Below are positions 45,872 through 63,434 of a DNA stretch of 64,000 bases, one piece after another. The position numbers and the translations under genes are program-made. This DNA comes from an uncultured Candidatus Saccharibacteria bacterium (GTDB lineage: Bacteria > Patescibacteriota > Doudnabacteria > UBA920), in assembly GCA_964631145.1 (NCBI GenBank), contig CAZVXT010000002.1:1140-65139 (forward strand), written 5' to 3'. Positions within the stretch are counted from its first letter, which is position 1, and every line of letters starts with the position of its first letter. Under the pieces are notes generated by a model that saw nothing but the letters and a program-made list of their open reading frames with translations, did no database searches and was not told the DNA's origin.

Positions 45872-47095
45872 TTATGGATGGATAATTCCTTTAATTCTGG
45901 AATCGTCTATATCTAGTACGCGGTGAGTAGTAATAAACAATCCTTCATAATTCCATTCGCTAATATAAACTTGGTCGCCAACAACTTTTTCTATATAAGC
46001 AACGTGTCCATATCTGCGATTTTCATTTGTTACTAAGATGGCTCCAGCGGCAGGGTTCTTATCTACAGTGGCACCGTATGCCTTAGAGTTTGCAATCCAT
46101 TGGTTAGCGTTTCCGCCCCATTTAATACCTGCAACTTTTCTTGCAACATAATCTGTACAATATCCAGCAGCAAATTTATGGTTTCCGCTAACGCTTTGTG
46201 CTTTAGGAATGGCTGGTTTAAATTTAGCCGGAGTTTGTTGTTGATTATCAGTTGGCTTTTGTGGCTTAGGTTTTTCTTGAGGAAGGCTGCCACCAGGAAT
46301 TATTAAGTATTCGCCCAAATCAACGTTATCTTCTTCATCTTCTAAACCGTTATACGAAACTATTTTTTTGATATCAGCGTTATAAGTTTTTGCGATATCA
46401 GTTAAAGTTAAGTTTGGGTTACTGTATTGAACAACGATACCATCAATAGGGGGTATTATTAACTGCCATCCAGGCTTTAATGCATTATTCGGTAAGCTGT
46501 TAGTTTCTCTAATTGTTTTTGGAGTAACTTTAAACTTTTCTGCAACAGTGTAAACAGTATCAAAAGGTTGTGTCTCATAAACTTGAACTTGTCTACTAAC
46601 TAACTTTTGTATACTGTCTGGATTTGATTTACTTATCCCACTATCGTCAATAGTTGCTTCTGCGATCAAGTTGTTTTGTTCTGTAGAAGATAAGACTTGG
46701 TTAAAGTCACTTGCTTCTGCTTGAGAGAAGATTCCTTCAGAGCTGATAGTGGTTCTGATAGAATTTTGTTTATCAGCTAACTGAGGGTTTAAGCTTTGGT
46801 GTCCTTGCAAAAAATTATTTGCTAAACTTTTATCCAAATAATCTATTTTAGATTTTATTGGGTTAAATGCTATTAAGTTTGAAATTGCTACTACGGCAAC
46901 AATTGCAATAACTAATAATTCGCTAGAAAAGTTTAAACCAAAATCTAAAATATCGAATTTATGTTTTACCTGAACTGATGGGTAATGATTAGTGTAAGCT
47001 TTGCCTAAAAATGGTTGCTTACGTTTTATCAAATGCCAAATCTTTTTAAAATAATATTGGATCATAAACCAATATAATTTTATTTGTTTGTACAA
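45872..47095 (-). CDS. Peptidoglycan hydrolase with an N-terminal TM, two LysM domains and a C-terminal CHAP domain.
   Basis: The LysM-like segments are 'YTVAEKFKVTPKTIRETNSLPNNALKPGWQLIIP' and 'LTDIAKTYNADIKKIVSYNGL...GEYLIIPG'. The CHAP segment 'GYCTDYVARKV...YGHVAYIEKV' carries the catalytic Cys/His. Confidence 0.75.
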   Translation of the reverse strand: MYKQIKLYWFMIQYYFKKIWHLIKRKQPFLGKAYTNHYPSVQVKHKFDILDFGLNFSSELLVIAIVAVVAISNLIAFNPIKSKIDYLDKSLANNFLQGHQSLNPQLADKQNSIRTTISSEGIFSQAEASDFNQVLSSTEQNNLIAEATIDDSGISKSNPDSIQKLVSRQVQVYETQPFDTVYTVAEKFKVTPKTIRETNSLPNNALKPGWQLIIPPIDGIVVQYSNPNLTLTDIAKTYNADIKKIVSYNGLEDEEDNVDLGEYLIIPGGSLPQEKPKPQKPTDNQQQTPAKFKPAIPKAQSVSGNHKFAAGYCTDYVARKVAGIKWGGNANQWIANSKAYGATVDKNPAAGAILVTNENRRYGHVAYIEKVVGDQVYISEWNYEGLFITTHRVLDIDDSRIKGIIHP

Positions 47096-47442
47096 ACGAG
47101 ATAATATTTTTTTATAGTGCGTTATATTTTGACCTTTTCATTGAGAGGTAGTTAAGATAGATAATCTATATTAACAGATTAATAATTCCCAATGATTATC
47201 GATAATAAAATCTACAGAAACTCTAACCCTCTTATCTGTAACTTTATTAAAGATTTTAAGTAAAATAATCAATGACTTATCAAGTGTATCAAGCATTTAG
47301 AACCCAAACAAGGGTTTTTGTGGATACGTTTTAATTAGACCCATATTTGAGGCATCTTTTATTTAAATCCGCTTAAATAAAGCAAAAAATAGCTTATTTT
47401 AACCTATGATTTACTCTATATATTAATGTTATAATTTACTTA

Positions 47443-49557: not shown

Positions 49558-49558
49558 T

Positions 49559-50383
49559 ATGAATATAGAAACCTTAAAACAAAAACTTGCAGATTTTGGA
49601 CTTAGCCCAAATAAAACATATGGGCAGAATTTTTTAATGGATGAAATTGTCTTACAGGATATGGTTGATGAAGCTGAAGTTAATAAGGATGATATAGTTA
49701 TTGAAGTTGGTCCTGGTATTGGCAACTTAACTTCATTTTTAATTGCTAAGGCAAAGCAAGTTATTGCTATAGAAAAAGACGATCAATTTGTATCTGTTTT
49801 AAATCATTTAAAAAATAAAAATAAAAATTTCAATTATCAGTTATCCGATATCTTGCATACAGATATTGCAAATTTAGTAGGGGAGTCAAAATATAAAGTT
49901 GTAGCAAATATTCCATACTATATTACAGGTAAGATAATTCAAAAATTTTTATCTTTAAACAATAAACCTCAAAGTCTAACTTTGTTAGTTCAAAAAGAAG
50001 TGGCACAAAATTTAAGTGCTCCAGTAGGCAAATTAAACTTGTTAGCTATATCGGTTCAATTATACGCTGATGTAAAAATGTTAACGGTTGTTCCTGCTAT
50101 GAAATTTTACCCAGCACCGAAAGTTGATAGTGCTGTTGTGCAAATTATTTTGCATGATCACTCTAAGTATGTAAATTATGATGAAAAGAAGTTGTTCAAG
50201 ATTTTGAAAGCTTGCTTCTTAGGAAAGCGAAAACAACTTCATAACACTTTAGTTAATAATTTAAAATTAGAAAAGACTGTGGTAGAGACTGTATTAGATG
50301 AATGCAATATATCAGCCAACTCTCGTCCTCAGCAATTATCGATTGATCAATGGATAAATTTATCAAACAAAATTAATTTATAA
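49559..50383 (+). CDS. rsmA: 16S rRNA (adenine1518/1519-N6)-dimethyltransferase.
   Basis: 'YGQNFLMDEIVLQDMV' and 'VIEVGPGIGNLT' are KsgA/RsmA hallmarks. The start is 2 nt after the pcrA stop. Confidence 0.9.
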   Translation: MNIETLKQKLADFGLSPNKTYGQNFLMDEIVLQDMVDEAEVNKDDIVIEVGPGIGNLTSFLIAKAKQVIAIEKDDQFVSVLNHLKNKNKNFNYQLSDILHTDIANLVGESKYKVVANIPYYITGKIIQKFLSLNNKPQSLTLLVQKEVAQNLSAPVGKLNLLAISVQLYADVKMLTVVPAMKFYPAPKVDSAVVQIILHDHSKYVNYDEKKLFKILKACFLGKRKQLHNTLVNNLKLEKTVVETVLDECNISANSRPQQLSIDQWINLSNKINL

Positions 50384-50401
50384 TTTTAGATAATCAAATT
50401 T

Positions 50402-50494
50402 AAAACAAGATTGAATTTTTTGCAACACTTCCAGAACTCTATTATTAAAATTATTTATAGAGTGAGGATGAGTTTAAAAATTCAATCTTGTTTT
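50402..50494. repeat. Perfect 19-bp inverted repeat separated by 55 nt, in a convergent intergenic region. Possibly a bidirectional terminator or long hairpin.
   Basis: aaaacaagattgaattttt (50402-50420) pairs with aaaaattcaatcttgtttt (50476-50494). Confidence 0.5.
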
Positions 50495-50614
50495 TTATAT
50501 TTTATAAATATAAGATGCAAAACTGCGTACCAGAGATTTTGTCTATAATTATTCTGGAGATGGTTTGGTTAGAACTGTAAAAATTGTTACTTAAATATTT
50601 CGTAATAAGTTGGT

Positions 50615-51109
50615 TTAATATATCAACTTAACTTTATCTCCAACTCTAACATTATTTTTTTGACTCCAATTTCCGTTTACTTCTAAAACATAATCTATCT
50701 CAGATGGGGGATAGAAAACAGGAAGTTGATTGAGTGGAGTTTTGATGTCTGGAGCTGCAACGTTTTGATTTATAGAAATAATTACATTATCCTTAATCCA
50801 AATTAAATCTAAATTAAAGTTCATTTCTTTCATCCAAAACCCAGGAGTATTATTTGCATCTTTTGTAAAATCAAAAAGCATTCCGGCGTCATCATTTAGT
50901 TTGGATCTATTTGATAACCCTTGCTGTTTTTGTTTATCTGTCACAGCTAACTCAACGTTTAATATTTTTGAATTTATATCTAACTGTTTGACATATTTTG
51001 AGCTTGAGATTTTGGTTTGTTCAGTGGCTTGTGATGCGTTTAAGTTTGCTTGATTACTGCATCCAGAAGCCAAGAAAATCAGGCAGAGTAGGGGAAGTAT
51101 TTTTTTCAT
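50615..51109 (-). CDS. DUF192-family lipoprotein.
   Basis: The lipobox is 'LLCLIFLASGCS'. The C-terminal 'GFWMKEMNFNLDLIWIKDNVIISI...YVLEVNGNW...VGDKV' matches DUF192/COG1430. The start was set at MKKILPL (ATG 51109); the track ORF starts at 51325. Confidence 0.55.
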   Translation of the reverse strand: MKKILPLLCLIFLASGCSNQANLNASQATEQTKISSSKYVKQLDINSKILNVELAVTDKQKQQGLSNRSKLNDDAGMLFDFTKDANNTPGFWMKEMNFNLDLIWIKDNVIISINQNVAAPDIKTPLNQLPVFYPPSEIDYVLEVNGNWSQKNNVRVGDKVKLIY

Positions 51110-51206
51110 AAATATAACTTGATTTTTTTGTTTAAATCTGCTATAATTATAATATAAAGTGATAGATTTCTGAAATAAAAACCAAAAAACAACTAAATAA
51201 ATTGCA

Positions 51207-51575
51207 ATGTACAGTAAGTTTGAAAAAAATAAACTTATTAAAATAGCTACTTTTGTAGTGCTTTTTTTGTTGTCAATACAAATAATATCTTTTCCAAAAT
51301 ATACATTGGCTGCTGTTTTGAGCAAGCCATTTGGGGGAGTAATTATATCGTATGTTCCTTCAACACCGCTATGTCCAGTTCCTCATACTTTGATCTATGA
51401 TTTTAAAACAAGGTTGTCATTTGGGATTGCTGTTTTGCCATCGTCTGTAGTTTATGCGTATGCAAATTTATTTAAGCCTGGTACATTTGTTTTGGGTAAA
51501 GCTGGTACAGTAAGCATTACATGCGCATTGCCATATTTAATTTATCCAATTATACAAGTAGGTACTTCTAAATAA
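51207..51575 (+). CDS. Small membrane/secreted protein, the first gene of the T4SS-like operon.
   Basis: 122 aa with an N-terminal TM 'IATFVVLFLLSIQIISF' and a second hydrophobic stretch 'FGIAVLPSSVVYAYA'. Confidence 0.4.
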   Translation: MYSKFEKNKLIKIATFVVLFLLSIQIISFPKYTLAAVLSKPFGGVIISYVPSTPLCPVPHTLIYDFKTRLSFGIAVLPSSVVYAYANLFKPGTFVLGKAGTVSITCALPYLIYPIIQVGTSK

Positions 51576-51580
51576 AAAAA

Positions 51581-52276
51581 ATGAAATTATTTATTGAAAA
51601 ATTAAATAATGCTGGTTTTAATAAAAACCATTTCCAATTAATTGGATTGGCAATGATTGTTTTTGTCATTCTAATTTTTGCTAAATCAGAAATTAGTTTG
51701 AAGTCTCTAGTTACTCAAGCCGATTCTAAACCGGAGATACTTACTTATGAAGATGCTTTAAAGCAAGTATCATCTAATAATAAAGTTAACTCAGATCAGT
51801 TTAATAAAGATTTGGAAAATCAATTTGCTCTTCTTGATAGAGGGCAAGCAGATGGAAAGGTGTTAGGAGAGGCGATTGGGATTGGTGCAATTCCAGATTC
51901 TTCTGAGTTAGCTGTGCCCGAAGCTTTTAATGAATATCCGGTTGTAACTTCAAATGATAATTCTTCAGTTGCAATTGCTAATTATCAAAATGCCATTACG
52001 AATATCGAAGCAAGATATGGCACAGTAGAGATGTTGGCGGATTTAAATTCGGATGATAAGCAAATGATAAATTCTAGTTTGGCAAAGTGGAAAAATTTAT
52101 TATTAGAAATTTCAAAAATAAATGTTCCATCTAGTTTGGCAGAAAGCCATAAAAATAAAATCGTATACTACTATGCAATTATGAAAACCGGAGAAGTGTA
52201 TGCAGGGCAACTAGATGAATCTAAATTATCGTATTACTTAAAAATAATGTTAAGCTACGCAAATAAGGTGCAGTAA
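51581..52276 (+). CDS. Bitopic membrane protein: a short cytoplasmic N-terminus, one TM, and a ~190-aa extracytoplasmic domain. Possibly a VirB8-like scaffold.
   Basis: The TM is 'LIGLAMIVFVILIFA'. The topology and size match VirB8/TcpC-like components, but the assignment rests on architecture only. Confidence 0.35.
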   Translation: MKLFIEKLNNAGFNKNHFQLIGLAMIVFVILIFAKSEISLKSLVTQADSKPEILTYEDALKQVSSNNKVNSDQFNKDLENQFALLDRGQADGKVLGEAIGIGAIPDSSELAVPEAFNEYPVVTSNDNSSVAIANYQNAITNIEARYGTVEMLADLNSDDKQMINSSLAKWKNLLLEISKINVPSSLAESHKNKIVYYYAIMKTGEVYAGQLDESKLSYYLKIMLSYANKVQ

Positions 52277-52277
52277 A

Positions 52278-54269
52278 ATGAAAAACAAAAATAAAAAAAT
52301 TCAAAAAATAATTGCTAGCTCATTATTATTACTTGTAATGTTGCCAACTTTTGTATCTGCTCAAAGTTTGCTTGGAGGATTGGATACTGTACCTGTTAAT
52401 GATGGGAGTCTTAATTCTAAGTTTGGATTTGACCAAGGGGCTTTGGGAGGGACAGTTGGCACTATCGTTAAAATAGCAGACCAGATCAACAAGATTAAGG
52501 CAGGGCTATCTTCAGTGTGTGCTAAAACAATTGAAGCCTTGGGTACTGCTACAGATGTGAGTGATTATATTTCTAAAGCACAAAATAATCCAGCTTTCTG
52601 GCAACAGATTTTAGGTGGCAGTGCGGTAGAGGCTACAACTATTACAGTTCAAATCCAATTTTTGAATGCAACTTTTGCGTGTGTTAAAAATTTTAATGAA
52701 AGCTTAAAGGATGTAAAGCCTGGAACTTTTGAAGAGTCTCAAAACTTGCAAAAACTTATTACTCACTACGGAGATATACAAACTCAATTGAGTGGGAAGA
52801 TTGAAAGCTTAAATGCGAGAGCGAGTGCAAGCTGGAAAGATGTGTTAAAAGCTGTGATGGTTAAAATGATTTTAACCTTGAACAAAAATTTAACTACAGA
52901 ACTAGTGAATGGTTTAGTTCAGAAATACAGAATAGAGGACTACTTGGCATATGGAGATGCGGTAGCTACTCAGTTGTATTCTATGAAATACATTAATGAA
53001 AATTATTCTGGTGATGCGCGTACTCAAATGATGTTGCGTTCTTTAGTACAAAGCCAGAAGTTTCCAGAAAAAGCAGCGACTGCGATGACCTTTGCAAATC
53101 AAATGGCACAAGAGCAGTTAAATAAATCTTGCGATGGTGTAAAGGATATAGAATCATCAGATACAGAAAGTTATCTAAGATGTATATCAGCATATGGACA
53201 AGCAGAAACTAGCCCCGCTTATCAATACATGCAAGCTTTAGATAAAACTTCTGTGGTATTAGCAGCTGCAAAAAATAGTACTGCGCAAGAAATTGCAACT
53301 AGTAATGGTTTTGCACCGCCTCGCGATTGTAGTGGGTCTGTTGCAGCGCAGCAACAAATTGATAGTAGTTATGATCAGGCAGTAAGTGATTTGGAAACTG
53401 CAAAAAGAACTACAGAGCTATTGTTAGATGCTTATACCAAAAACCCAACTCCTGCTCAAGAGGCAGAGTACAATAAAGCTTTTGCCGCAGAGCAAATTGC
53501 AGAAGACAAATTAAACAATTTAAGCAAAAACACTAAAACCCCTGTCATAGATATTTGTAAAGCAATTACCGCACCAAGCAATTTTGTTTCTGATCAGATT
53601 AATAATTTCTTAAAACAACATTTGGATCAAGCTTCCCAATTAAAGAGTGATAACTTGCCATTTTATGCAAACTTCTTAAGCGACGTTGCAAGTAACTTTT
53701 TAACCAACTTAATTGTGGGTGGAAAAAGCACTGGTCAAGTATTTAAGGAAGCTGGTTATCAGGCATTAGGCGGCACAATTGTGGCATTGTCTGACGCTCA
53801 AAAGCAAGCTGCTAAAAATACAACTGGTCCAATTACTCCAGGTAAAATAACCGAAGGGTATGTAAAGATTTATGCTAGAGAAGTGGTTAATAGTGATTTG
53901 ACCGGTGATAATACCACTACTTTAAGTGCTGGCAAGAACTATGCGATCGTCGTAGACTTTAAAGACTTGGTTAGTACTGGTGACGCTAACTATACACCAG
54001 TAAGAATGGTTGTTAGCGGAGTAGCGGGCGGTCCGTTAAACTTTGATATTAGCTCTGCAGAATTGAATAGCGGTACTGTCACTTTTGATGTGAGTAACGC
54101 TACAAAATCCTTTACAGTTAAAGTTTTGTTATATTCTAAGTTGGCTGGTACACCAGAAAACTTAATTAGAGCTGAAGGTTGGAGTCAAAACTTTGGAGTT
54201 GGGGTTGTACAAGGCGTAAGTACTGTAAGTTTTTATCCACGCGGTACTTTTGCCCCTAGAGGGAATTAA
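52278..54269 (+). CDS. Large secreted protein of 663 aa in the T4SS-like operon.
   Basis: The signal peptide is 'IIASSLLLLVMLPTFVSAQS'. It starts 1 nt after the previous stop. A terminator hairpin lies at 54301-54332. Confidence 0.5.
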   Translation: MKNKNKKIQKIIASSLLLLVMLPTFVSAQSLLGGLDTVPVNDGSLNSKFGFDQGALGGTVGTIVKIADQINKIKAGLSSVCAKTIEALGTATDVSDYISKAQNNPAFWQQILGGSAVEATTITVQIQFLNATFACVKNFNESLKDVKPGTFEESQNLQKLITHYGDIQTQLSGKIESLNARASASWKDVLKAVMVKMILTLNKNLTTELVNGLVQKYRIEDYLAYGDAVATQLYSMKYINENYSGDARTQMMLRSLVQSQKFPEKAATAMTFANQMAQEQLNKSCDGVKDIESSDTESYLRCISAYGQAETSPAYQYMQALDKTSVVLAAAKNSTAQEIATSNGFAPPRDCSGSVAAQQQIDSSYDQAVSDLETAKRTTELLLDAYTKNPTPAQEAEYNKAFAAEQIAEDKLNNLSKNTKTPVIDICKAITAPSNFVSDQINNFLKQHLDQASQLKSDNLPFYANFLSDVASNFLTNLIVGGKSTGQVFKEAGYQALGGTIVALSDAQKQAAKNTTGPITPGKITEGYVKIYAREVVNSDLTGDNTTTLSAGKNYAIVVDFKDLVSTGDANYTPVRMVVSGVAGGPLNFDISSAELNSGTVTFDVSNATKSFTVKVLLYSKLAGTPENLIRAEGWSQNFGVGVVQGVSTVSFYPRGTFAPRGN

Positions 54270-54478
54270 GAACTTTAAAAACATAACAATAAAAACCGCT
54301 GATCATATAATCAGCGGTTTTTCTTATAAAAGATTTTTTAGATTGAAGAGTATATTTTTTGAATTTTCAATCCTTAAAATTGATTTTAAATTATATAAAA
54401 TTTAATTTGGGTTTTACACATCTAATATGGTATAATTATTTTAAGTTTTGAGATAAATTTTACCAAAATTTTAAGACC

Positions 54479-57400
54479 GTGAATCAGAAACAAACATCAA
54501 AATTACACAATAAATTTAGAAACAAATTTTTGATTTTTAAGAAGCCTTTACTCCTATTTTTGGCTTTTGTTTTGTTAATGCCGATTGTTATAACATTGAC
54601 AAACACTGCAAAAGCCGGGGCTTCTTTTAATTTTTCAGAAAGCGGAACTTTATCTGACGAATCAAAGACAGGAAATTGCCCTGTTAACAAAATGCCTTTT
54701 AAATCTGTGATTGAAGTGAATAAGCCTCAAAATGCAGGTGGACTGCTTTCTAATAGCACTTTTACTACAGGTATCAATCAGGATTTGAAGTTTTATGTTA
54801 GCATGGAGGTGACAAATAATACTGGAATAAGAGGTGCGGTAGATAGTGTATCTGGTGGTGCGGCAAACTTTCAAACGATAGTTGATAACTGTAAGGCTCA
54901 GGCAGAAGCTGGCAAGATTAACCTAAGGGCAGTTATAGATTATAAAAGATTTACAGTAGCTGGTAATAACCCTTATATTGCTGCTGGTCAATTGCGTACC
55001 CCAGCAGTAACAATGACTTTTGGGAATGGTAAATTAGAAGCCAATTTAACAACTAAAATCCCAACTTCAAGTTTGGGTGGAGCTATTGTTGGTGACAATA
55101 GTCCTAGTTCGACAGGTGATAGAATAATTGTTTCATTTGAGGTCACTGCAAATGTAGGGACTACTTGGAATCGAAATATTAGTGGAACTGGAATAACTGG
55201 ACTACTTCAAAAGGCTAATGTAAATGATGAATCTGTAACTCAGGCTGTAAATCAATCTAAAGAAGTTGGAACTAGTACAACTGTGGATTTGCAAGACGTT
55301 GCAAAATCTTTAACTTTGGATAGTACAAAAGATAAAAAAGGATTTGAAACAGTTTATAGATACGCTGAAGATCAAAAGGATACAGATTCTGCAAGGCAAG
55401 GTAAAATTCAAATTCCGTTTTATTTAAGCTGGAAAGGTACTGGATCACCTCCGTTGTTAAATTCTCCTTTGATTAGGCAACAAGACGCTCTTTTTAAAGG
55501 GGCTTTAGATGGCTTCTACTTGGGTATCTCTAAAGAGTATAAAAATGACAAATCAACTCCGCAATGTGGTAGTACTATCACGGATTTTTGGTGTACTTCA
55601 TTAATTTTAGATCAGGCTCCAAAACAAGCTAGAGAATTAGATGTTCAAGACACTTTGAATTTATCTTATGCAAATATATCTGCTTTAGACACAGATACCG
55701 CAGCTGCTTCTACTGCAACCACCAAACCAAAGTTGGTCAAAAAAGCCGTTGCTTTGCCTATGGTATCAGTTAAGGCAAGCAATGATAATGCAGTAATGAC
55801 TAATAATTCATCTGCTATTACTATCGAAGTTTATGCAACCTTTGAAGATTTGAAAAAAGCTTGCCAAGAAGCAGATGCAAATGCTGATTGTTCTAAACCA
55901 GAAAATTTATATTACGGACATAAATATACAGAAGTAACAACTACAGGAGCCCAAGATTCTAAAGATACAACCGCTAAAACTTTAATTGATTTTCTTCGTC
56001 GCGTTGTTGTTGATATTACATTGCTGCTTACAGGATTAATTTATAAGATTTTTTCATTCATTTTAGTCCCAGTATTAAAAGCACTCTTAAGTATTCATCC
56101 ATATGAAGATAAATTTGTAGATTTTATCTACCCTGGTTGGGTTATTATTAGAAACCTGACTAACATTGCATTTATCATTGCCCTTCTTGTTATGGGGTTA
56201 AAAGTTATGTTTAGACAAGAAGGGGTAGGTAATAGCCAAGGGTTTTTAGTTCGCCTAATTTTAATGGCATTGTTAGTTAATTTTAGCTTAGTTATAGGTC
56301 AAAGCGTGGTAGCCATAGCAGACACGGTACAGTCTCAATTTTTACCAGAAAATAATAAGGTACTCGAAGTTCTGGGTCAGAAATTAATGGTAGACCCTGT
56401 AATTATATTTAGAGATAGCTTAAATGACCCTAATAATAATTTTTCTGAAACCCCTGCTGCAAGTGATATTTTTAAACCAATAGTTTTGTTGGTGTTATCT
56501 ATAGCTTCATTTTTTGCTTTTGTTGCATTAGCTGGTCTTATCTTTGTACGTATTATTATGCTTTGGGTTTTGTATATGGTTTCGCCATTTGCATATTTTG
56601 GTAGACTCCTTAAAGAAACGCAAAAGTATGCTGATCAATGGTGGAGTGAATTTATAAAGCAGACCATGACAGTACCAATACTCGCTTTCTTCTTAAATAT
56701 CACAGCTTTAATGGCAACTACATTTGCTGTTCGCACAGGAAGCTCTGTAACTGTTTCTCCGGCAAACGAATATCTGCTTGGCGGTATTACTGGAGATTTG
56801 GCAACTTTTACCATCACAGTTATTTCTCATTTTGTTGTTTTGATATTTTTGGGCGCAGGAATGGTCTATGCAACATCTGCTGGAGGTATTGGCTCTAAAG
56901 CGGTTGTTAAATATGCTAAGAAAGGGTTTGATAACTTTACTACCAGACCTGCTAAATGGGCATATAATCAAGCTAAAGATTTGGGTAAGTATGGAGTTAA
57001 ACAAGGCAAACTATTTGGAAAAGACGCTGCAAATACTTTTTACGAACGCAATATCGCTGGTGGTATGCTTGACCTTAAAAAATGGAAAGATAATTGGAAG
57101 TCTTCTGTTGCAGAAACTACTAAAAGACGAAAAGCAGAGAGATTGGCACGTAATGCTCAAAAGCTTGGACCTGGAAACTTATTGCCTAAAGATGCGACAA
57201 GTTGGGCTGAGTTAGGTAAAAATTGGAAACAAGCTGGCAAGTATTTAGCAGCAAAAATTAAAGGACGTGGACCTGATGGCTTATTAAATAATGCTAATAA
57301 ATTCCAAGAAGCATCTCAGATATTAACAGATAATGATCGTGCTGCGTTAATGAGCAGATATGCAAATCATGTAAGTGACAAAGCAGATATTGATCATGAA

Positions 57401-58597
57401 AAGTATTTATTAGAAGATCACGGTGCTATTACTATTGAAAGAGCAACAAAATATAAAGATAATCTCCAAAAAATGGCAGATTCTGCAGACAAGCAGGCTA
57501 AAGATTTAGAAAAAGGTATGCAGAAAAAAATTAATAATGGCACTATTGATGCTAATGGAGAAGAAGCGACTAAGACTAAAAAGAAAATAGCTGATTTAAG
57601 ACAAGATGCACAGCAGTACCAAGATGGGGCTAAGAATCTTGACGCTGCTATTGGTAGAAGTCAGGCTGCAGGCAGCAATGAAGTATCATTAGAAAATAAA
57701 AATGTAGATTTAAATTTGGTCAGCCCGGTATTAAAAGTTGATCAATTATCTATAGACTTAGAGGATGATAGTAAAAAAGCAGCTAAAGTTATCAAAGCAG
57801 ATAAAGAATCTATAGATCTGGATGATAAACGTCGAGAGCAATATGGTATTCAACATATTACTGAAGATCAACAGAAAGATTTTAGGAGGCAAAGTGATTC
57901 TTATCGAGATGAAGCTAAGAGTGTAAATATGGTCACTTCAAAAGAAGGTCAAGCTGCACTTAATATACTTAAGAAAGATGCAGCAGAAAAAATTGAAAAA
58001 ATTGATGATGTGGATGGATTAAAAGAAATTTATAAAGAAGCATTGGCTAAAAATAACTCCGCGTTGGCAGCTGCCATAGCAGAAAAAATGGCTAAAATAG
58101 GTGGATTGGATGACTTGCTTAAGATGAGGGGATTTGATAATAACCTTAAAGATTTTCAAAGATTTATTGATCAAGAGTTTAAAAACTTGGCACCTCAGTT
58201 AAGGTTGCAATTAGGATCGCAAATTTCTTATATTGCTAAAGGTAATGGAAATGCTGTGTTAGGAAATGCAACAACATACGAATATAATAAAGGCACAGGA
58301 GAGGTTGTTGTTAATTGGTCTCAAGAAGGATTGGCTAGTAAAAAGTTGGATGCTAAGCAAAAAAGCGATCGTCCAGATGTTGCTTCTAAGTATAAAAAGA
58401 CAGATATTTCTAAAGAAGCTGGGGGACTATGGTATTTGAACCAAGGTTTTGTGGATGCTATGAATAACTGGAATCCTGCTGCAGTAGACAACTTTGTTAA
58501 GGATGCACCAACTTCATTAGTGAAACATATATTGGACTCGAAAGGTAGCGAGCAAATCAAAACTAGTGTGAAAAATATTTTAAGCAGCGTAGTATAA
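54479..58597 (+). CDS. Giant VirB6/TrbL-like polytopic membrane protein of 1372 aa. It has an N-terminal ~480-aa exported domain, a central multi-TM channel-like region, and a ~570-aa charged coiled-coil C-terminal domain.
   Basis: It has a GTG start and a signal/TM 'LLLFLAFVLLMPIVITLTNTAKA'. At least 7 hydrophobic helices span residues ~500-800 (e.g. 'VVDITLLLTGLIYKIFSFILVPVL' and 'PIVLLVLSIASFFAFVALAGLIFVRIIMLWVLYMVSPFAYF'). The C-terminus is Lys/Glu/Asp-rich. Confidence 0.5.
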   Translation: MNQKQTSKLHNKFRNKFLIFKKPLLLFLAFVLLMPIVITLTNTAKAGASFNFSESGTLSDESKTGNCPVNKMPFKSVIEVNKPQNAGGLLSNSTFTTGINQDLKFYVSMEVTNNTGIRGAVDSVSGGAANFQTIVDNCKAQAEAGKINLRAVIDYKRFTVAGNNPYIAAGQLRTPAVTMTFGNGKLEANLTTKIPTSSLGGAIVGDNSPSSTGDRIIVSFEVTANVGTTWNRNISGTGITGLLQKANVNDESVTQAVNQSKEVGTSTTVDLQDVAKSLTLDSTKDKKGFETVYRYAEDQKDTDSARQGKIQIPFYLSWKGTGSPPLLNSPLIRQQDALFKGALDGFYLGISKEYKNDKSTPQCGSTITDFWCTSLILDQAPKQARELDVQDTLNLSYANISALDTDTAAASTATTKPKLVKKAVALPMVSVKASNDNAVMTNNSSAITIEVYATFEDLKKACQEADANADCSKPENLYYGHKYTEVTTTGAQDSKDTTAKTLIDFLRRVVVDITLLLTGLIYKIFSFILVPVLKALLSIHPYEDKFVDFIYPGWVIIRNLTNIAFIIALLVMGLKVMFRQEGVGNSQGFLVRLILMALLVNFSLVIGQSVVAIADTVQSQFLPENNKVLEVLGQKLMVDPVIIFRDSLNDPNNNFSETPAASDIFKPIVLLVLSIASFFAFVALAGLIFVRIIMLWVLYMVSPFAYFGRLLKETQKYADQWWSEFIKQTMTVPILAFFLNITALMATTFAVRTGSSVTVSPANEYLLGGITGDLATFTITVISHFVVLIFLGAGMVYATSAGGIGSKAVVKYAKKGFDNFTTRPAKWAYNQAKDLGKYGVKQGKLFGKDAANTFYERNIAGGMLDLKKWKDNWKSSVAETTKRRKAERLARNAQKLGPGNLLPKDATSWAELGKNWKQAGKYLAAKIKGRGPDGLLNNANKFQEASQILTDNDRAALMSRYANHVSDKADIDHEKYLLEDHGAITIERATKYKDNLQKMADSADKQAKDLEKGMQKKINNGTIDANGEEATKTKKKIADLRQDAQQYQDGAKNLDAAIGRSQAAGSNEVSLENKNVDLNLVSPVLKVDQLSIDLEDDSKKAAKVIKADKESIDLDDKRREQYGIQHITEDQQKDFRRQSDSYRDEAKSVNMVTSKEGQAALNILKKDAAEKIEKIDDVDGLKEIYKEALAKNNSALAAAIAEKMAKIGGLDDLLKMRGFDNNLKDFQRFIDQEFKNLAPQLRLQLGSQISYIAKGNGNAVLGNATTYEYNKGTGEVVVNWSQEGLASKKLDAKQKSDRPDVASKYKKTDISKEAGGLWYLNQGFVDAMNNWNPAAVDNFVKDAPTSLVKHILDSKGSEQIKTSVKNILSSVV

Positions 58598-58600
58598 ATT

Positions 58601-59605
58601 ATGAACAATGAAGAACTATTAAAAGATGCTTTACAAAGATTGAATGCCAAAAGTGCAGTCGAGCTTTTAAATATGTCTGAAAAAAATCCAAGCATGAACC
58701 TGGATAATATTACTAAGATAAGATTATCTTATGTAAGGATGAATAGTCTTTCGTTGAACAGGCTTACAGATTTGATGCAGCAATCCATTTTGCAAAGCTA
58801 TACTCTGCCAGATTTTCTATTATCAGAAAAAATAGAAACATTTGCAGAGCTGTTATTTGATCCAGAGCAAGAAATTGAGCTTTACGATCGTATAGGATTT
58901 ATTTTGAGCGGCAGCACTGAACGCGTGGTAACGCAAAGTATTACTATTAATGGTAAGGCGGAAGTTGCTACAATTAGCAATTTTATTGCTGACTATATTA
59001 ATACCTTTAATGAAGTTGACCGAGATGCTTTAACTCAACTTAAATATATTAACAATTCTCCTAATGTTAAAGATTTATTAGAAGTTCAGAGAGCTGTAAT
59101 CAAAGATTTGCTTAAGCTATATGATAAAGCTGAAGATATGGTAGTAATGTGGCAAACTCTTCCTACTGTAGAAAATCCAAAACAAATTGAAGAGTTGTTT
59201 GATATACAAGATTATTACCCAGGAATAGAAAAAGCAGAAGAATCAACTGGTTCTAAGGATGCATTTAATGATCAGAGTCAAAATCAAAATGTAATAAAAG
59301 AAGAGCCGGCTAAGGCTGTTGTGCATCAACGCTCAGAACAGCCTGTACTTCCAAAACGTGTTGTCCAACCTATCCCAACAAGGGTAAATGAGCCTCGTGT
59401 TATAGAGGCTTTGACTCCTCAAAATAAAACAAGTACCCCAGCCATGGATGTCTTACGAGCAAATTATTCTCCAAAAGGAATTATGCAGAGCAATGGTACT
59501 AATATAAAAATTAAAGATGAAGTAGACAGATTACAGGAAGATCAAAAAAAATTTGCTGATATTCAAAAAAAGTTAGATGAATTAAAGACTAGAAAGTCTA
59601 AATAA
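58601..59605 (+). CDS. Hypothetical T4SS-operon protein.
   Basis: 334-aa ORF located 4 nt after the previous gene, with a charged C-terminal coiled coil. Confidence 0.45.
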   Translation: MNNEELLKDALQRLNAKSAVELLNMSEKNPSMNLDNITKIRLSYVRMNSLSLNRLTDLMQQSILQSYTLPDFLLSEKIETFAELLFDPEQEIELYDRIGFILSGSTERVVTQSITINGKAEVATISNFIADYINTFNEVDRDALTQLKYINNSPNVKDLLEVQRAVIKDLLKLYDKAEDMVVMWQTLPTVENPKQIEELFDIQDYYPGIEKAEESTGSKDAFNDQSQNQNVIKEEPAKAVVHQRSEQPVLPKRVVQPIPTRVNEPRVIEALTPQNKTSTPAMDVLRANYSPKGIMQSNGTNIKIKDEVDRLQEDQKKFADIQKKLDELKTRKSK

Positions 59606-59613
59606 ATTTTGTT

Positions 59614-60408
59614 ATGAACGAATTAAAAGTTCGACAATTAAAACAGCTGATAAATATTAGTACCGTGTTAAGCCCTCAAGAAAAACAAGAATGGCTTGGT
59701 CTTTTAGAATTGATGAATGATAAACAACTTACTGAATTAGAGCATATATTGGTGCCTAAACCTGCTGTAGAGCCTAAAGTAGAAACAGGTGAAGTAAAGA
59801 CACCGTCTTTAAGCCATATTTCTAGTTTGCCAAATAAAGTGACTATTCCTCAAAACTTTATTAAGTCCACAATTCCTATTAAAGAATCTACTACAGAACC
59901 GATAAAAGTTGCTGTAAATCCTTTAGAAGAAAAACAAAAACAAGCTATCATTAGCAATGAGTCAAATATGGCAGTTGCAGATGGGAAAAATATTGAAGTT
60001 TCTGCTGGGGTGCAACCAAAAAAACAAATTTCAATAATTAGAACTCCTCCTAAAACACCTGATATTAAAGCTGATTTAAATAATATCGAAAGAAATAATA
60101 CAGATATCCCTGAGGTTATACCACCTCCTGCAGAGTTATCAATCGAAGAATTAGAAAATTTATCAGTATCAAATCTAAGAAATTGGGGAGCAAAAGCATT
60201 TATAAAAGTCTTAAGTAAAACAGCATCTGTATATGGTTATTTTGTAACATTGCAAGAATTTGAAAAGAGCCAGTTATATAAAGATTATTTAGAGTATGGT
60301 AGAACCGGCTTGATGATGAATGGTGATTCTAATAAATTAAAGTTAACTCATTCGGAATTTGAGACAATCATAGATTCTATTGCTGCGATGCAGGTTAATA
60401 AGACTTAA
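59614..60408 (+). CDS. Hypothetical T4SS-operon protein.
   Basis: 264-aa ORF. Confidence 0.45.
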   Translation: MNELKVRQLKQLINISTVLSPQEKQEWLGLLELMNDKQLTELEHILVPKPAVEPKVETGEVKTPSLSHISSLPNKVTIPQNFIKSTIPIKESTTEPIKVAVNPLEEKQKQAIISNESNMAVADGKNIEVSAGVQPKKQISIIRTPPKTPDIKADLNNIERNNTDIPEVIPPPAELSIEELENLSVSNLRNWGAKAFIKVLSKTASVYGYFVTLQEFEKSQLYKDYLEYGRTGLMMNGDSNKLKLTHSEFETIIDSIAAMQVNKT

Positions 60409-60454
60409 AATGGTATAATTATTAAGGAGATGTTTATTTAAATTATAAGTAATT

Positions 60455-60901
60455 ATGCAGTTTCCTGTACCACAATTTACAGATGTAGAGGATAAAATTA
60501 TTGCCGGACTTACATTTAAGCAGTTTGGTATTATTTTTGGTGCCGCAGTATTTACATTTGTTATTTATGTTATAACTAAGAACATTCCTATTACCATAGG
60601 CTTTGGAGTATTAACTGGACTTCCTTCATTGGCATTAGTATTTGGTAAGCTCAATGGTAGACCTTTGTATGCTAGCGCCGGAGCATTTATTCAATATTTA
60701 TTTGGCGCAAAAGTGTATACATATCATAAAGCTGGATACAAAGAAGTAGAAATAAATACAGAGATACCTAAAGCAAAACCGGAAGTAGAGAAGATAGATC
60801 GATCTCCTTTAAAGTTGAAAGAACTAACTTATGCATTAGAACAAGGCAGAGAAGAAGAAAATAAAATTTTAGATATTATTAATAAAGATAAGCAAAAATA
60901 G
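60455..60901 (+). CDS. PrgI-family / VirB3-like small membrane protein.
   Basis: 'DVEDKIIAGLTFKQFGIIFGAAVFTFVIYVI' matches the PrgI-family N-terminal motif (..EDKIIgGLTlRQ..). It has two TMs and sits immediately upstream of the VirB4 module, as in Gram-positive T4SSs. Confidence 0.55.
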   Translation: MQFPVPQFTDVEDKIIAGLTFKQFGIIFGAAVFTFVIYVITKNIPITIGFGVLTGLPSLALVFGKLNGRPLYASAGAFIQYLFGAKVYTYHKAGYKEVEINTEIPKAKPEVEKIDRSPLKLKELTYALEQGREEENKILDIINKDKQK

Positions 60902-60906
60902 CTTAC

Positions 60907-61587
60907 ATGGCAGAAAAGAAAAACCAAAACCAAGGACAATCTTCAACTCAAGAATTTTTACAAGTTTCGGAAATTAGAGATAATATTATTATCTTAAAAG
61001 ATGGAACTCTGCGTGCTGTATTAGCTGTTTCTAGCACTAATTTTGATTTAAAGAGCGAAGAAGAACAAAATGCTTTGATTTATTCATATCAGAGATTTTT
61101 AAATTCGCTTGAGTTTAGTATTCAGATTTTGATGCAGAGTCGAAAAATGGAAATTGCTGACTACACAGAAAAGCTTAGGCAGATTATGGATAAGCAGACA
61201 ACCGAGCTTATGAGAATGCAAACCGCAGAATATATAGATTTTATAGATAGGCTCGTAGAATCTGCAAATGTCATGAATAAAAGTTTTTATGTAGTCGTTC
61301 CTTATGATATGAGCGTAAATCCAGGAACAACAAGCTTTTTTAGTAAATTATTTGGAAGCGGTAAAACAAAAGAAATCGAAGATAAAAGAGTAAATCTAGA
61401 AACGTATGGCAAGCAGTTAGACGAACGCGTTACGACAATCGAAAATAATTTAGCAGGCTGTGGTTTAAAAGTTATGAGACTTCAAACAGGGCAATTGATA
61501 GAGTTAATTTATAATTCTTACAATTTTAGTGCAGGTCCTTCTATAGATGCTAGCCAGCTTTCGCAAATCAATATTAAAGCACAGTAA
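60907..61587 (+). CDS. Protein resembling the N-terminal domain of Gram-positive VirB4 (PrgJ/ConE/TraE). It is encoded separately from the ATPase.
   Basis: 'VSEIRDNIIILKDGTLRAVLAVSSTNFDLKSEEEQNALIYSYQRFLNSLEFSIQIL' resembles the N-terminal segment of VirB4-family ATPases. Its stop lies 2 nt before the ATPase ATG. The combined length (226+614 aa) matches a full VirB4, with the Walker A at a position equivalent to residue ~490. Confidence 0.45.
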   Translation: MAEKKNQNQGQSSTQEFLQVSEIRDNIIILKDGTLRAVLAVSSTNFDLKSEEEQNALIYSYQRFLNSLEFSIQILMQSRKMEIADYTEKLRQIMDKQTTELMRMQTAEYIDFIDRLVESANVMNKSFYVVVPYDMSVNPGTTSFFSKLFGSGKTKEIEDKRVNLETYGKQLDERVTTIENNLAGCGLKVMRLQTGQLIELIYNSYNFSAGPSIDASQLSQINIKAQ

Positions 61588-61589
61588 TT

Positions 61590-63434
61590 ATGGGACTATT
61601 TTCATTAAATCAAACTGATTTAGATAAAAAAAAGGCGGAGTTAGCCAATTTAAAAGGGCAAATTTCTGCTGATCAAAAATTATCTGAAGTTGAAAAAGAA
61701 TATCAGGAAGGTATTACACAGCTTCAAGATTTGTTAGCCCCAGCTTCTTTAAAGTTTACTGGTTCTTCTTTCGAATTAAACGGTAAGTTTGGACGCAGCT
61801 TTTTTACTTTGGCTTATCCTAGATTTTTATCTTCCAATTGGCTTTCATTTATTATAAATTCTGAAAGTGCTTTAGATGTATCTATGTTTATCTACCCAAT
61901 AGATTCTGAGATTGTTTTAAAAAAGCTAAAGTCAAAAGTTGGAGAGATTGGCTCGCAGATCATGATTGAGCAAGAAAAAGGGTTGGCTCGCAACCCGATG
62001 TTGGAAACTGCTTATCATGATGTTGAGGATTTACGTGACCAATTACAGCAAGGTACCGAGCATTTCTTTAGATTTGGATTGTATTTTACTTTGTATTCCG
62101 ATAGTTTGGAAGAATTAGATAAGAACTCAAAAATATTAGAAAGCGCCCTTGGGGCTAAGTTAGTTGTAACTAAGAGAGCAATGCTTGCAATTGAACCAGG
62201 CTTTAATTCAACATTGCCTTTAGGACTTGATCAGCTAAATGTTGCAAACAACCTCAATACAAGTCCTTTATCAACGACATTTCCTTTTGTATCTTCTGAT
62301 TTAACTGGTAATGATGGTATTTTGTATGGAGTTAACAGGCATAATAATAGTTTAATTTTGTTTGATCGTTTTCAGATGGAAAATGCTAATTTTGTGGTTT
62401 TTGCTAAGTCCGGTGCAGGAAAAAGTTATGCTGTAAAACTAGAAATTTTGCGATCTTTAATGTTAGGTATAGAAATTATTGTCATAGATCCAGAAAATGA
62501 ATATCAGCATTTAGCCGAAGCTGTAGGTGGTACTTATATAAATATATCTTTAAATTCTGATTTTCGTGTTAATCCATTTGATTTGCCAATCGGTATTGCG
62601 GATGAAGACCCTGCAGATACTTTACGAAGTTCTGTAATTAACTTGATGGGCTTGATGGGGCTTGTATTGGGTAAGCTTGATCCTTCAGAGGAAGCAATTT
62701 TAGATAAAGCTATTTGGCAAACTTATGCTAAAAAAGATATTACCGAAAATACTGATTTTAGAAGTGCAGAAATGCCAATTATGAGCGATTTAATTGAAGT
62801 GCTTTCAGGTATGGTAGGTGGAGAAAGTTTGGCTCTTAGATTAGGTAAATTTACTGAAGGGACTTTTTCTGGATTGCTAAATCAACAAACCAACGTGGTT
62901 TTGCAAAATCAACTTTTGGTCTTTTCTATTAGAGATCTTGAAGATCAACTTCGTCCAATAGCTATGTATATTATTTTAGGACATATTTGGAATGTTGTTA
63001 GAAGTGAGCTTAAAAAGCGTATTTTGGTTTTGGATGAAGCCTGGTTGATGATGCAGCATGAAGATAGCGCTCGTTTTGTTTTTGGTATCGCCAAGCGTGC
63101 ACGTAAATACTACCTAGGTTTAACAACTATTACTCAGGATGTGGCGGATTTTATGGCTAGTCCATATGGAAAACCTATTGTTACCAACTCATCCATACAG
63201 CTATTATTGAAGCAAAGCCCTGCGGCAATTGATGTTGTTGCAGAAACCTTCTTTTTGACTGAAGGTGAAAAATATTTATTACTCGAGAGTGATGTTGGTG
63301 AAGGGATATTTTTTGCTGGATTAAAGCACGCAGCAATAAAAATTTATGCTTCTTATGTCGAAGATCAAATTATTACTACTGATCCAAAACAATTATTAGA
63401 AATAGAAGCCAGTAAAGAAGACTTTAATAATTAG
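61590..63434 (+). CDS. VirB4/TrbE/CagE-family type IV secretion ATPase (C-terminal 614 aa).
   Basis: The Walker A is 'FVVFAKSGAGKSYAV' and the Walker B is 'RILVLDEAWLMM'. 'TITQDVADF' and a CagE_TrbE_VirB-like region lie upstream. Confidence 0.85.
   Translation: MGLFSLNQTDLDKKKAELANLKGQISADQKLSEVEKEYQEGITQLQDLLAPASLKFTGSSFELNGKFGRSFFTLAYPRFLSSNWLSFIINSESALDVSMFIYPIDSEIVLKKLKSKVGEIGSQIMIEQEKGLARNPMLETAYHDVEDLRDQLQQGTEHFFRFGLYFTLYSDSLEELDKNSKILESALGAKLVVTKRAMLAIEPGFNSTLPLGLDQLNVANNLNTSPLSTTFPFVSSDLTGNDGILYGVNRHNNSLILFDRFQMENANFVVFAKSGAGKSYAVKLEILRSLMLGIEIIVIDPENEYQHLAEAVGGTYINISLNSDFRVNPFDLPIGIADEDPADTLRSSVINLMGLMGLVLGKLDPSEEAILDKAIWQTYAKKDITENTDFRSAEMPIMSDLIEVLSGMVGGESLALRLGKFTEGTFSGLLNQQTNVVLQNQLLVFSIRDLEDQLRPIAMYIILGHIWNVVRSELKKRILVLDEAWLMMQHEDSARFVFGIAKRARKYYLGLTTITQDVADFMASPYGKPIVTNSSIQLLLKQSPAAIDVVAETFFLTEGEKYLLLESDVGEGIFFAGLKHAAIKIYASYVEDQIITTDPKQLLEIEASKEDFNN

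Follow-up and report, generated by a model that had tools for sequence, protein, structure and literature searches.

A VirB6-like protein with large N- and C-terminal extensions, probably a subunit of a chromosomal Patescibacteria T4SS

The T4SS of Patescibacteria is built from a gene set comprising VirB4, TrsD, PrgI/VirB3, VirB6 and pilins; a relaxase is absent in most cases. Relatives of the protein described below align with the MPF-T VirB6/TrbL profile and not with PrgH-type profiles (PMC12102498). For Southlakia epibionticum ML1, Wang et al. 2023 (PMC10633639) describe the system as essential, including a TrbL/VirB6-like protein of 1088 aa, SEML1_0013, whose gene was classed as essential at the later time points of the Tn-seq experiment. 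That VirB6 proteins can carry large additional domains is an established concept. As defined in PMC12857230 and PMC7648143, citing Alvarez-Martinez and Christie 2009, an extended VirB6 protein has at least five hydrophobic helices and at least one large hydrophilic domain beside or within the TrbL/VirB6 domain. Some of these proteins have a putative signal peptide (PMC7648143, PMC12857230). The solved homologue, TrwI/VirB6 of R388, has seven long helices, only two of which lie in the membrane (Mace et al. 2022, PMC9259494).

Here, we have analysed a window of 64,000 nucleotides (the whole stretch of DNA under study) and suggest that one of its genes most likely encodes the VirB6-type subunit of a chromosomal Patescibacteria (CPR) T4SS, in the extended VirB6 form. 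The ORF listing and translation show an uninterrupted frame at 54479-58597 (+) encoding 1372 aa. It begins with GTG, the first start downstream of the preceding in-frame stop; an alternative in-frame start, TTG, is found at codon 18, and the hydrophobic segment still lies after it. The N-terminus consists of a basic n-region, with 7 K/R per 22 residues, and an 18-residue hydrophobic stretch, followed by AKA|G at residues 44-47, where A46 is near-invariant in an alignment of 43 family sequences. These features agree with the GTG start and signal-like N-terminus proposed in the initial annotation, and we read residues 1-46 (54479..54616, +) as a cleavable Sec signal peptide. Behind it follow a putatively extracytoplasmic, beta-rich and Cys-containing N-terminal domain (residues 47-497; 54617..55969, +), a VirB6/TrbL core of seven long helices (residues 498-805; 55970..56893, +) and a Lys-rich C-terminal domain classed as all-alpha (residues 806-1372; 56894..58594, +). 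Kyte-Doolittle hydropathy peaks at about residues 23, 515, 555, 588, 668(-708), 732 and 774.

The gene is separated by a 209-nt gap from the gene of a secreted protein upstream. A terminator-like scan found within this gap a 14-bp perfect stem-loop at 54291..54322, with A and T runs on either side and no strand assigned, which is possibly a transcript boundary or an attenuator. Promoter-like matches in the AT-rich gap region were no more frequent than in shuffled sequence, and we therefore claim no promoter upstream of the VirB6-like gene.

The core identifies the protein as VirB6-like. Pfam TrbL (PF04610) aligned over profile positions 2-214 of 215, at scores of 18.6 bits for the whole protein and 21.8 bits for the isolated core, both below the curated cut-off of 25.9; 10 of 17 family cores matched the same model, with a best E of 4.1e-7. 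The Pfam search returned no second family for the protein, the NCBIfam search returned no family at E<=0.1 and no conjugation VirB6-type model, and the core profile matched none of the PDB sequences at E<=10. The AF2 model of the core has seven long helices (498-538, 545-577, 583-621, 627-649, 660-708, 715-751 and 770-829) with pLDDT of 70-87, and Foldseek matched it with a probability of 1.00 to R388 TrwI/VirB6 (7o3v_F/G/J, 8rt9_F, 8rtd_L), at a target-normalised TM-score (TMt) of 0.46-0.55 over ~280-300 columns. Since the mean pLDDT of the model of the N domain and core together is 62.8, the model behind this match is of medium confidence. The 43-sequence alignment contains 30 invariant core columns. 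The core thus combines a VirB6/TrbL profile match of sub-threshold score with seven predicted helices folded as in TrwI, and with VirB3 and VirB4 encoded nearby the VirB6-like identity first assigned to the protein holds. The accompanying count of at least seven transmembrane segments is probably too high, since seven long helices do not all have to span the membrane, as the two of R388 illustrate (PMC9259494).

The resemblance to TrwI (PDB 7O3V, 8RT9) extends to its being encoded with VirB3 and VirB4, but sequence identity is 11-14%, and the R388 system is that of a diderm with VirB5 and VirB7-10, plasmid-borne and conjugative. As only 261-272 residues are modelled in the matched TrwI chains, TrwI has neither of the extensions found here. 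The extended VirB6 proteins known from Rickettsiales (Anaplasma VirB6-1 to -4, Rickettsia RvhB6), like TraG of the F plasmid, have a TrbL/VirB6 core with large hydrophilic regions on its N- or C-terminal side (PMC7648143, PMC12857230). Their hosts are diderms. In Rickettsiales the extensions are rich in repeats and reportedly exposed at the surface; the C-domain of F TraG acts in mating-pair stabilisation and entry exclusion. Pfam, NCBIfam and Foldseek detected no sequence or fold similarity between their extensions and those of the present protein.

The initial annotation regarded the protein as unusual, and this view does not survive comparison with its relatives. An exhaustive search recovered 9088 cluster representatives with E<=1e-3, of which 243 had E<=1e-30; in the species-genome collection, relatives are encoded on 279 candidate stretches. 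All 80 of the 279 that were listed come from Patescibacteria or from unclassified-bacterium MAGs. The taxon labels at hand are Saccharibacteria and Doudnabacteria. In a family set of 152 sequences, with a median length of 1173 aa, nearly all are collinear over the three parts; the N extension reaches at least 200 aa in 140 and the C extension at least 300 aa in 144. Judged from these sequences, the build in three parts is typical of the family, and the protein belongs to a large, already catalogued family. With an N domain of ~450 residues and a C domain of 567 residues around the core, it has the build of the extended VirB6 proteins already described (PMC12857230, PMC7648143), so the architecture is not a new type either.

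The gene stands first in a conserved block. It is followed by two genes for soluble proteins with no family match, one of 334 aa (58601..59605, +), the next operon gene, recognisable in 27/81 loci, and one of 264 aa (59614..60408, +), in the same position in 62/81 loci. Next come a PrgI/VirB3-like gene whose product has two transmembrane segments (60455..60901, +; PF12666, 32.6 bits against a cut-off of 27; 61/81 loci) and a gene for a TrsD or VirB4-N-terminal-like protein (60907..61587, +; 60/81 loci), which matches NCBIfam TrsD at E 7.4e-10, below the curated cut-off, and has PF26593 TraC-like on record. The last is the VirB4 ATPase (61590..63434, +), with NCBIfam conju_CD1110 at 350 bits against a cut-off of 325 and the Pfam TraG P-loop; its identity is 64-90% across 58 related loci, with the single exception of L051 (57%). 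Immediately upstream of the VirB6-like gene, the secreted 663-aa protein (52278..54269, +) has a signal-like N-terminus, no family match and the same position in 56/81 loci, and is probably part of the same system. The block as a whole is kept in ~60 of the 81 loci fetched from Patescibacteria genomes.

Thus VirB4, TrsD, PrgI/VirB3 and VirB6 lie close together, as in the Patescibacteria T4SS, in a Patescibacteria genome and in a chromosomal, non-mobile context. Among the neighbours scanned, no protein matched the pilin models PF18895 or PF04956, and no pilin gene was identified in the window. A secreted hydrophobic protein of 122 aa at 51207-51575 is a candidate pilin by size only.

Among the closest described proteins is SEML1_0013, which we compared by its published description. 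In the account of the ML1 system (PMC10633639), it is likewise long (3267 nt), with a membrane core structurally matched to TrbL/VirB6 and helical domains after it (CesA-like 516-630, ARM-like 806-1085), and its gene is chromosomal and accompanied by PrgI, a TrsD-like protein and VirB4. According to the same account its core begins near residue 156, so that any external N domain would fall well short of the ~450 residues of the present protein, and an NTF2-like gene and a second T4SS-like protein of 998 aa stand between SEML1_0013 and PrgI, where the present locus has the 334-aa and 264-aa soluble proteins.

The N domain differs from the rest of the protein in several respects. Residues 47 to ~500 are T/S/N-rich and contain all six cysteines of the protein; across the family, the N domain has 6.4 cysteines on average and the tail 0.07. 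The N domain shares 14% identity with relatives, against 53% for the core, which, on these alignments, makes it the fastest-evolving part of the protein. In several relatives, phmmer matches to the N domain were limited to its first ~100 and last ~60-100 residues, and in a few, parts of the centre matched too. The invariant residues are C138, R294, C363, C372 and C471, and the conserved cysteines suggest that the domain is stabilised by disulfides. AF2 predicts a beta-rich fold for it, at pLDDT of 40-78. The large exported N-terminal domain of the initial annotation is borne out by the signal peptide and by the beta-rich, Cys-containing residues 47-497; cleavage of the signal peptide would leave this domain outside the cell. 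Its rate of evolution greatly exceeds that of the remaining operon, and for this reason we consider it most likely to be a surface-exposed part of a wall-spanning structure or a host-contact module.

The C-terminal tail is of a different kind. Residues 811-1372 contain 13.5% K, 9.3% D and 5.3% E, with a net charge of +15 and no cysteine. The AF2 model (mean pLDDT 81.3) shows a basic juxtamembrane segment, four helices of ~30-36 residues arranged in hairpins, and a small alpha/beta end (~1151-1372), which is more conserved and has the motif KNN..LA.AI.KKLAK.G around 1188-1208. The tail is conserved among the ~50 closest relatives, and tblastn finds it only fused behind a VirB6 core. Of the Lys/Glu-rich coiled-coil domain first proposed, the large size and charge stand, while the composition is Lys/Asp-rich and the hairpins and alpha/beta end form no single long coiled coil. 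Foldseek, which had been proposed for both terminal domains, gave only weak matches to arrestin/VPS26-like and pilin-like beta-sandwiches for the N domain, and for the tail no PDB or viral match at E<=1e-3.

On which side of the membrane the tail lies depends on the topology of the core. We favour an Agrobacterium-type five-span topology, with helices 1, 2, 5, 6 and 7 in the membrane, which would place the Lys-rich tail in the cytoplasm. We regard as unlikely, but still worth weighing, that the same VirB6 homologue is anchored as in R388, with helices 1 and 2 spanning the membrane, helices 3-7 forming an external dome and the 567-residue tail extracellular. In that case the two extensions would form a stalk or cap that spans the wall, replacing VirB5 and the outer-membrane core, which are absent in a monoderm, and release of the tail might be conceivable. 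The long helical hairpins of the AF2 tail model would suit such an arrangement, as VirB5-type stalk proteins also use this shape. The R388 cryo-EM structure, in which alpha1 and alpha2 alone of the seven helices are in the membrane (PMC9259494; PMC12857230), points the same way: because its helices 3-7 are periplasmic, a tail attached to that topology would be extracellular. However, over the family the 37 residues past helix 7 average 6.4 K/R and 2.6 D/E, a strong positive-inside signal, and the acidic loops 613-660 and 752-773 agree with five spans (family mean net charges: N-tail +4.3, loop 613-660 -2.8, loop 752-773 -1.4, first 37 tail residues +3.8). Moreover, the conserved cysteines are in the exported N domain, with the tail almost free of them, Foldseek found no VirB5/TraC-like match to the tail (best E 0.14), and cytoplasmic partners are at hand in TrsD/VirB4 and the two soluble operon proteins. 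The charge bias thus favours a cytoplasmic tail without establishing it.

The initial annotation had placed the protein with ConG, TcpH and PrgH, and it is conceivable, though very improbable, that the gene belongs to an integrated Gram-positive conjugative element and serves DNA transfer. TcpH (pCW3) and ConG (ICEBs1), the MPF-FA proteins of 700-900 residues, are likewise from monoderms; behind a polytopic N-terminal region they carry additional sequence that is largely unstructured or hydrophilic (PMC12857230). They are encoded on conjugative elements that also supply a relaxase and a coupling protein. To our knowledge, MPF-FA VirB6-like proteins have no large N-terminal exported domain. The best VirB4 model is that of the CD1110 family, from a Firmicutes conjugative element, and a serine recombinase and methylases are found elsewhere in the window (0.3-7 kb), but the recombinase is 47 kb distant from the block. 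Neither a relaxase nor a coupling protein, beside virB4 or elsewhere, turned up among the ORFs scanned at 33-64 kb and in the next 10 kb past the window (L001), and neither NCBIfam conjugation VirB6-type models nor PrgH/TcpH/ConG-type profiles matched. The block lies between housekeeping genes, with PcrA and KsgA upstream and a DnaB-type and a RecG-like helicase downstream. KsgA is also upstream in ~55 block-keeping loci, PcrA too in most, and the syntenic flanks (PcrA, KsgA, DUF192, LysM-CHAP) are found in most of these. VirB4 is 86-90% identical where PcrA is merely 60-66%, which fits a core cellular function. Because the block and the upstream KsgA/PcrA are kept together across loci, we assign it to a vertically inherited chromosomal Patescibacteria T4SS and not to a Gram-positive conjugative element. 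That the long ORF is a frameshifted or chimeric assembly fusing genes for secreted, membrane and charged proteins, the artefact the initial annotation had warned of, is hardly credible, since the identical 1372-aa product is recorded in NCBI and in Logan assemblies, at least two contigs carry it and the contig shown occurs in 3 samples, the order of parts is the same in nearly all of the 152 family sequences, and tblastn matches to the tail invariably come immediately after the core, within a single gene.

How such a protein could work in the Patescibacteria T4SS is suggested by analogy with R388. The core would be a pentamer seated within and above the membrane, in the middle of a VirB3/VirB4 ring, and could serve as the pilin-recruitment platform and as a gate for substrate passage. 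A cytoplasmic tail adjoining VirB4/TrsD and the two soluble operon proteins would be favoured as a docking platform, which could make up for the absent adjacent coupling protein. The protein's large additional domains are genuine, but ordinary for its family. A further reading, which we put forward as rather improbable, is that both extensions represent functional innovations tied to the epibiotic lifestyle: the ectodomain, hypervariable and braced by disulfides, would be a host-specific contact or wall-spanning tip, and the fold-orphan, strongly basic tail a built-in substrate receptor. This reading is drawn entirely from where the two parts lie, their charge and evolutionary rate, and the lack of a neighbouring T4CP. 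If this were true, the tail would replace the missing coupling protein and bind the protein or nucleic acid moving between parasite and host.

The core of the 1372-aa VirB6-like protein (residues 498-805) is, on its AlphaFold2 model, a VirB6 homologue at the level of fold and a remote one by sequence. The only Pfam match is TrbL/VirB6 (PF04610), at 18.6 bits with the full-length sequence and 21.8 bits with the core alone, both below the cut-off of 25.9 bits. The alignment nevertheless covers profile positions 2-214 of 215, and 10 of 17 family cores also match the profile (best E 4.1e-7). The NCBIfam search with the protein gave zero matches, and PDB sequence searches with the whole protein and with a core profile returned nothing useful. 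We modelled residues 1-830 from a 16-sequence alignment (mean pLDDT 62.8, with 70-87 in the core), and the core was predicted as seven long helices: 498-538, 545-577, 583-621, 627-649, 660-708, 715-751 and 770-829. Foldseek against the PDB matched this model to the TrwI/VirB6 chains of the R388 stalk (7o3v_F/G/J, 8rt9_F, 8rtd_L) with probability 1.00, a target-normalised TM-score of 0.46-0.55, ~280-300 aligned columns and 11-14% identity. It is from these matches that we take the core to be a VirB6 homologue; its link to TrwI is visible at fold level only and not through PDB sequence searches. The VirB6-like identification made in the initial annotation was right.

The gene itself is a single uninterrupted ORF at 54479-58597 (+), with 1372 codons and a stop. 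As had been noted, it starts with GTG, the first start codon past the upstream stop, the alternative being a TTG at codon 18. The signal-like N-terminus was also borne out: seven Lys/Arg within 22 residues are accompanied by a hydrophobic stretch of 18 residues and by AKA↓G at 44-47, with A46 nearly invariant among 43 aligned relatives, and we read residues 1-46 as a putative cleavable Sec signal peptide. In a Kyte-Doolittle scan, the remaining hydrophobic segments fall between ~505 and 805. Residues 47-~500 are rich in Thr/Ser/Asn and hold all six cysteines of the protein, while the tail (811-1372) has none and carries a net charge of +15. The initial annotation had described the protein essentially correctly, except that the tail is Lys/Asp-rich (K 13.5%, D 9.3%, E 5.3%) and not Lys/Glu-rich.

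The rarity implied in the initial annotation was not upheld. The word-indexed homologue search was unreliable: queries with the N domain (47-497) and with the tail alignment recovered nothing, the query itself included, and the whole protein recovered only itself and two distant relatives. We therefore relied on an exhaustive phmmer search of residues 1-1200 against 1.84 billion cluster representatives, which gave 9088 proteins at E ≤ 1e-3, of which 3415 reach E ≤ 1e-10 and 243 reach E ≤ 1e-30. The alignments begin near query residue 440-500 and extend through the tail in some 50 of the closest relatives. Among 152 family sequences (median length 1173 aa), at least 200 residues precede the core in 140 and at least 400 in 63, and at least 300 follow it in 144 and at least 450 in 131; the hydropathy layout is alike in most of the 60 inspected. 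Scanning one genome per species turned up 279 candidate stretches coding for a relative, and every one of the 80 loci listed comes from Patescibacteria or unclassified-bacterium metagenome-assembled genomes (MAGs), labelled Candidatus Saccharibacteria, Doudnabacteria, Shapirobacteria, Patescibacteria group or plain "bacterium". In this large family the gene is an ordinary member and no discovery in itself. Some MAGs have two different VirB6-like loci (L004 and L012 in one, L021 and L026 in another; L-numbers name single loci fetched from Patescibacteria genomes), the extra one lying on a short contig alongside the gene for the upstream secreted protein. Either they are paralogues, or mixed strains have broken the assembly at the variable VirB6-like gene.

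Patescibacteria are already known to carry such systems. VirB4, TrsD, PrgI/VirB3, VirB6 and VirB2-like pilins are widespread in the phylum, usually chromosomal and without relaxase, and for the VirB6 homologues the profile that aligns is MPF-T VirB6, not PrgH (PMC12102498). The VirB6 homologues of the phylum are already catalogued, in a survey without discussion of their size or extensions. In S. epibionticum ML1 the T4SS cluster is essential for epibiotic growth (PMC10633639). Its VirB6-like gene SEML1_0013 (3267 nt, with a TrbL/VirB6 structural match) encodes a membrane region at ~156-445 and helical domains reaching residue 1085 (PMC10633639 supplement), and came out as essential at the later time points (PMC10633639). 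An "extended VirB6" subtype, marked by large hydrophilic regions at the N- or C-terminal side, is already established, and the working of its extra domains is stated to be unknown (PMC12857230; PMC7648143). Gram-positive homologues have 700-900 residues in MPF-FA and ~300 in MPF-FATA (PMC12857230), compared with 1372 here.

Downstream of the VirB6-like gene and on its strand, 58601-60408 encodes d334 and d264, soluble proteins of 334 and 264 aa without family match, which make candidates for cytoplasmic partners of the tail. They lie between the VirB6 gene and that of PrgI/VirB3 (two transmembrane segments; PF12666, 32.6 bits, cut-off 27), and genes for a 226-aa TrsD-like protein (NCBIfam TrsD, E 7.4e-10; PF26593 on record) and a 614-aa VirB4 (61590-63434; NCBIfam conju_CD1110, 350 bits, cut-off 325) follow on this strand. 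A 209-nt gap with a 14-bp perfect stem-loop precedes the VirB6-like gene; a promoter scan told little in DNA so rich in AT (58 sites versus 53.7 expected). Three conserved upstream genes (51207-54269), none with a family match, encode a 663-aa secreted protein (u663), a 231-aa bitopic protein of VirB8-like architecture and a 122-aa secreted hydrophobic protein, a pilin candidate by size only. Farther upstream are DUF192, KsgA, PcrA/UvrD and a LysM-CHAP hydrolase (45872-47095, -), then RecO, IleRS and ArgRS; the hydrolase could be a VirB1 analogue that opens the cell wall.

By tblastn across the 81 fetched loci, u663 is conserved in 56, d264 in 62, PrgI in 61, TrsD in 60 and VirB4 in 59. KsgA lies upstream in ~55 loci, most of which also have PcrA and DUF192 and many LysM-CHAP. 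The 45872-63434 neighbourhood (DUF192/u663/VirB6/d264/PrgI/TrsD/VirB4) is syntenic across species in ~55 related loci. The locus is a vertically inherited chromosomal system rather than a mobile element, and the Gram-positive conjugation frame in which it had first been placed does not hold for a chromosomal locus with flanks so conserved. That the window (GC content 30-38%) is chromosomal follows from its tmRNA gene (29354-29740, -), NrdR and the class I ribonucleotide reductase large and small subunits (14008-18851, NrdR included). Elsewhere, 261-6942 looks like an integrated element or its remnant at a tRNA: it has two N6/N4 DNA methylases (261-1043 and 1046-1876, -), an HTH protein (4190-4726) and, overlapping a tRNA gene (6871-6942, -) with its 3' end, a large serine recombinase (5248-6909). 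A secreted or pilin-like gene cluster at 7068-11318 encodes, among others, a PilX_N-type pseudopilin domain (9505-10926) and a protein with a CarboxypepD_reg domain; it probably supplies the minor pilins of a type IV pilus. GC skew is negative in the first 2 kb only and positive after, with the cumulative skew climbing steadily; a strand-bias switch may lie close to the window start, be it an origin or terminus of replication or the border of the inserted element.

Within the operon, the rates of change differ greatly. Identity to the window protein in the closest genomes is 86-90% for VirB4, 63-70% for TrsD, 60-66% for PcrA, 51-65% for KsgA, 52-64% for PrgI and 36-47% for the alignable part of the VirB6-like protein; over loci L002-L019 the ranges are 85-90% for VirB4, 57-66% for PcrA and 51-65% for KsgA. 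The VirB4 ATPase is far better conserved than the housekeeping genes, but its operon partner VirB6 far less so. Broken down by part and averaged over 42 relatives, identity is 53% for the core, 19-28% for the tail and 14% for the N domain.

Despite this divergence, C138, R294, C363, C372 and C471 of the N domain are invariant in the 16-sequence alignment, with Y293, W318 and C462 almost invariant, and as judged by alignment the N domain is homologous across the family. In several relatives phmmer aligns no more than the first ~100 and the last ~60-100 residues of the N domain; in a few, parts of its centre align as well. Foldseek of both extensions, as proposed in the initial annotation, gave weak matches for the N domain and none at E ≤ 1e-3 for the tail. 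The N domain, modelled as beta-rich (pLDDT 40-78), gave weak matches (E ~1e-3 to 2e-2) to arrestin, VPS26, Spo0M and TXNIP, which are two-lobed beta-sandwiches, and to a Gram-positive shaft pilin. At such pLDDT and E values we dropped an arrestin/VPS26-like or pilin-like assignment, and the model weakly suggests a beta-sandwich-like domain and no more.

The tail (806-1372), modelled from the 16-sequence alignment, reached a mean pLDDT of 81.3, far above the model of N domain and core. It is predicted to comprise a basic juxtamembrane stretch of low confidence, four helices of 30-36 residues in a hairpin arrangement, and a better conserved alpha/beta end bearing the motif KNN..LA.AI.KKLAK.G. 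Foldseek gave nothing at E ≤ 1e-3 against the PDB (best 0.14, generic SMC/exportin long helices) or against viral models (generic long-helix proteins only), and the tail is therefore left without a fold; a VirB5-like reading was rejected, as the fold searches lent it no support. In all fetched loci the tail stands directly behind a VirB6 core and never elsewhere, and the window has no other VirB6-like gene and no free-standing tail domain.

Averaged across 43 family sequences, the net charge is +4.3 for the N-tail, -2.8 for loop 613-660, +0.35 for loop 711-728 (2.7 K/R on average), -1.4 for loop 752-773 and +3.8 for the first 37 tail residues, with 6.4 cysteines in the N domain versus 0.07 in the tail. 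Agrobacterium VirB6 reportedly has its N-terminus outside, five spans, a large external loop and its C-terminus inside (Jakubowski et al. 2004), and this is the topology that the charge and cysteine pattern fits best. The spans would be helices 1, 2, 5, 6 and 7, with helices 3-4 as the external loop; the N domain would then be external and the tail cytoplasmic. An external tail with R388-type two-span anchoring is unlikely, but stays a live rival because in the R388 structure the membrane holds helices 1 and 2 only and the remaining helices are periplasmic (PMC9259494; PMC12857230), and because surface exposure is reported for the C-termini of some extended VirB6 proteins (PMC7648143); against it, the charge pattern across the 43 sequences favours the five-span reading with the tail inside. 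Counting the AlphaFold2 helices as spans was rejected, as six core spans give a parity that clashes with the charge pattern, and so was 660-708 as a hairpin, which would place the acidic loop 613-660 inside.

By its homology with R388, the core would most likely form a pentamer centred in the VirB3/VirB4 ring and act in pilin recruitment and substrate gating. The N domain, which we place outside because of the signal peptide, cysteines and charge, may extend the base through the wall of a monoderm without VirB5 and VirB7-10, or may contact the host, a role suggested by its evolutionary rate. More speculatively, the tail, if cytoplasmic, could dock VirB4/TrsD, d334/d264 or substrates in this system, which has no coupling protein next to it. 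For the system as a whole, both effector delivery and host-macromolecule uptake have been suggested. The role of the Patescibacteria T4SS is described as completely unknown, and the system as essential for epibiotic growth in one tested species (PMC11665869). The apparent rate contrast between VirB4 and VirB6, the size and variability of the putative ectodomain and the conserved fold-orphan tail are not discussed in the T4SS literature cited here. VirB6 is the centre of T4SS-type machines, and a fast-evolving external domain in the VirB6 of this family, a conserved ~560-residue tail without known fold and the identity contrast among VirB4, PcrA and VirB6 may aid the design of experiments in cultivable Saccharibacteria.
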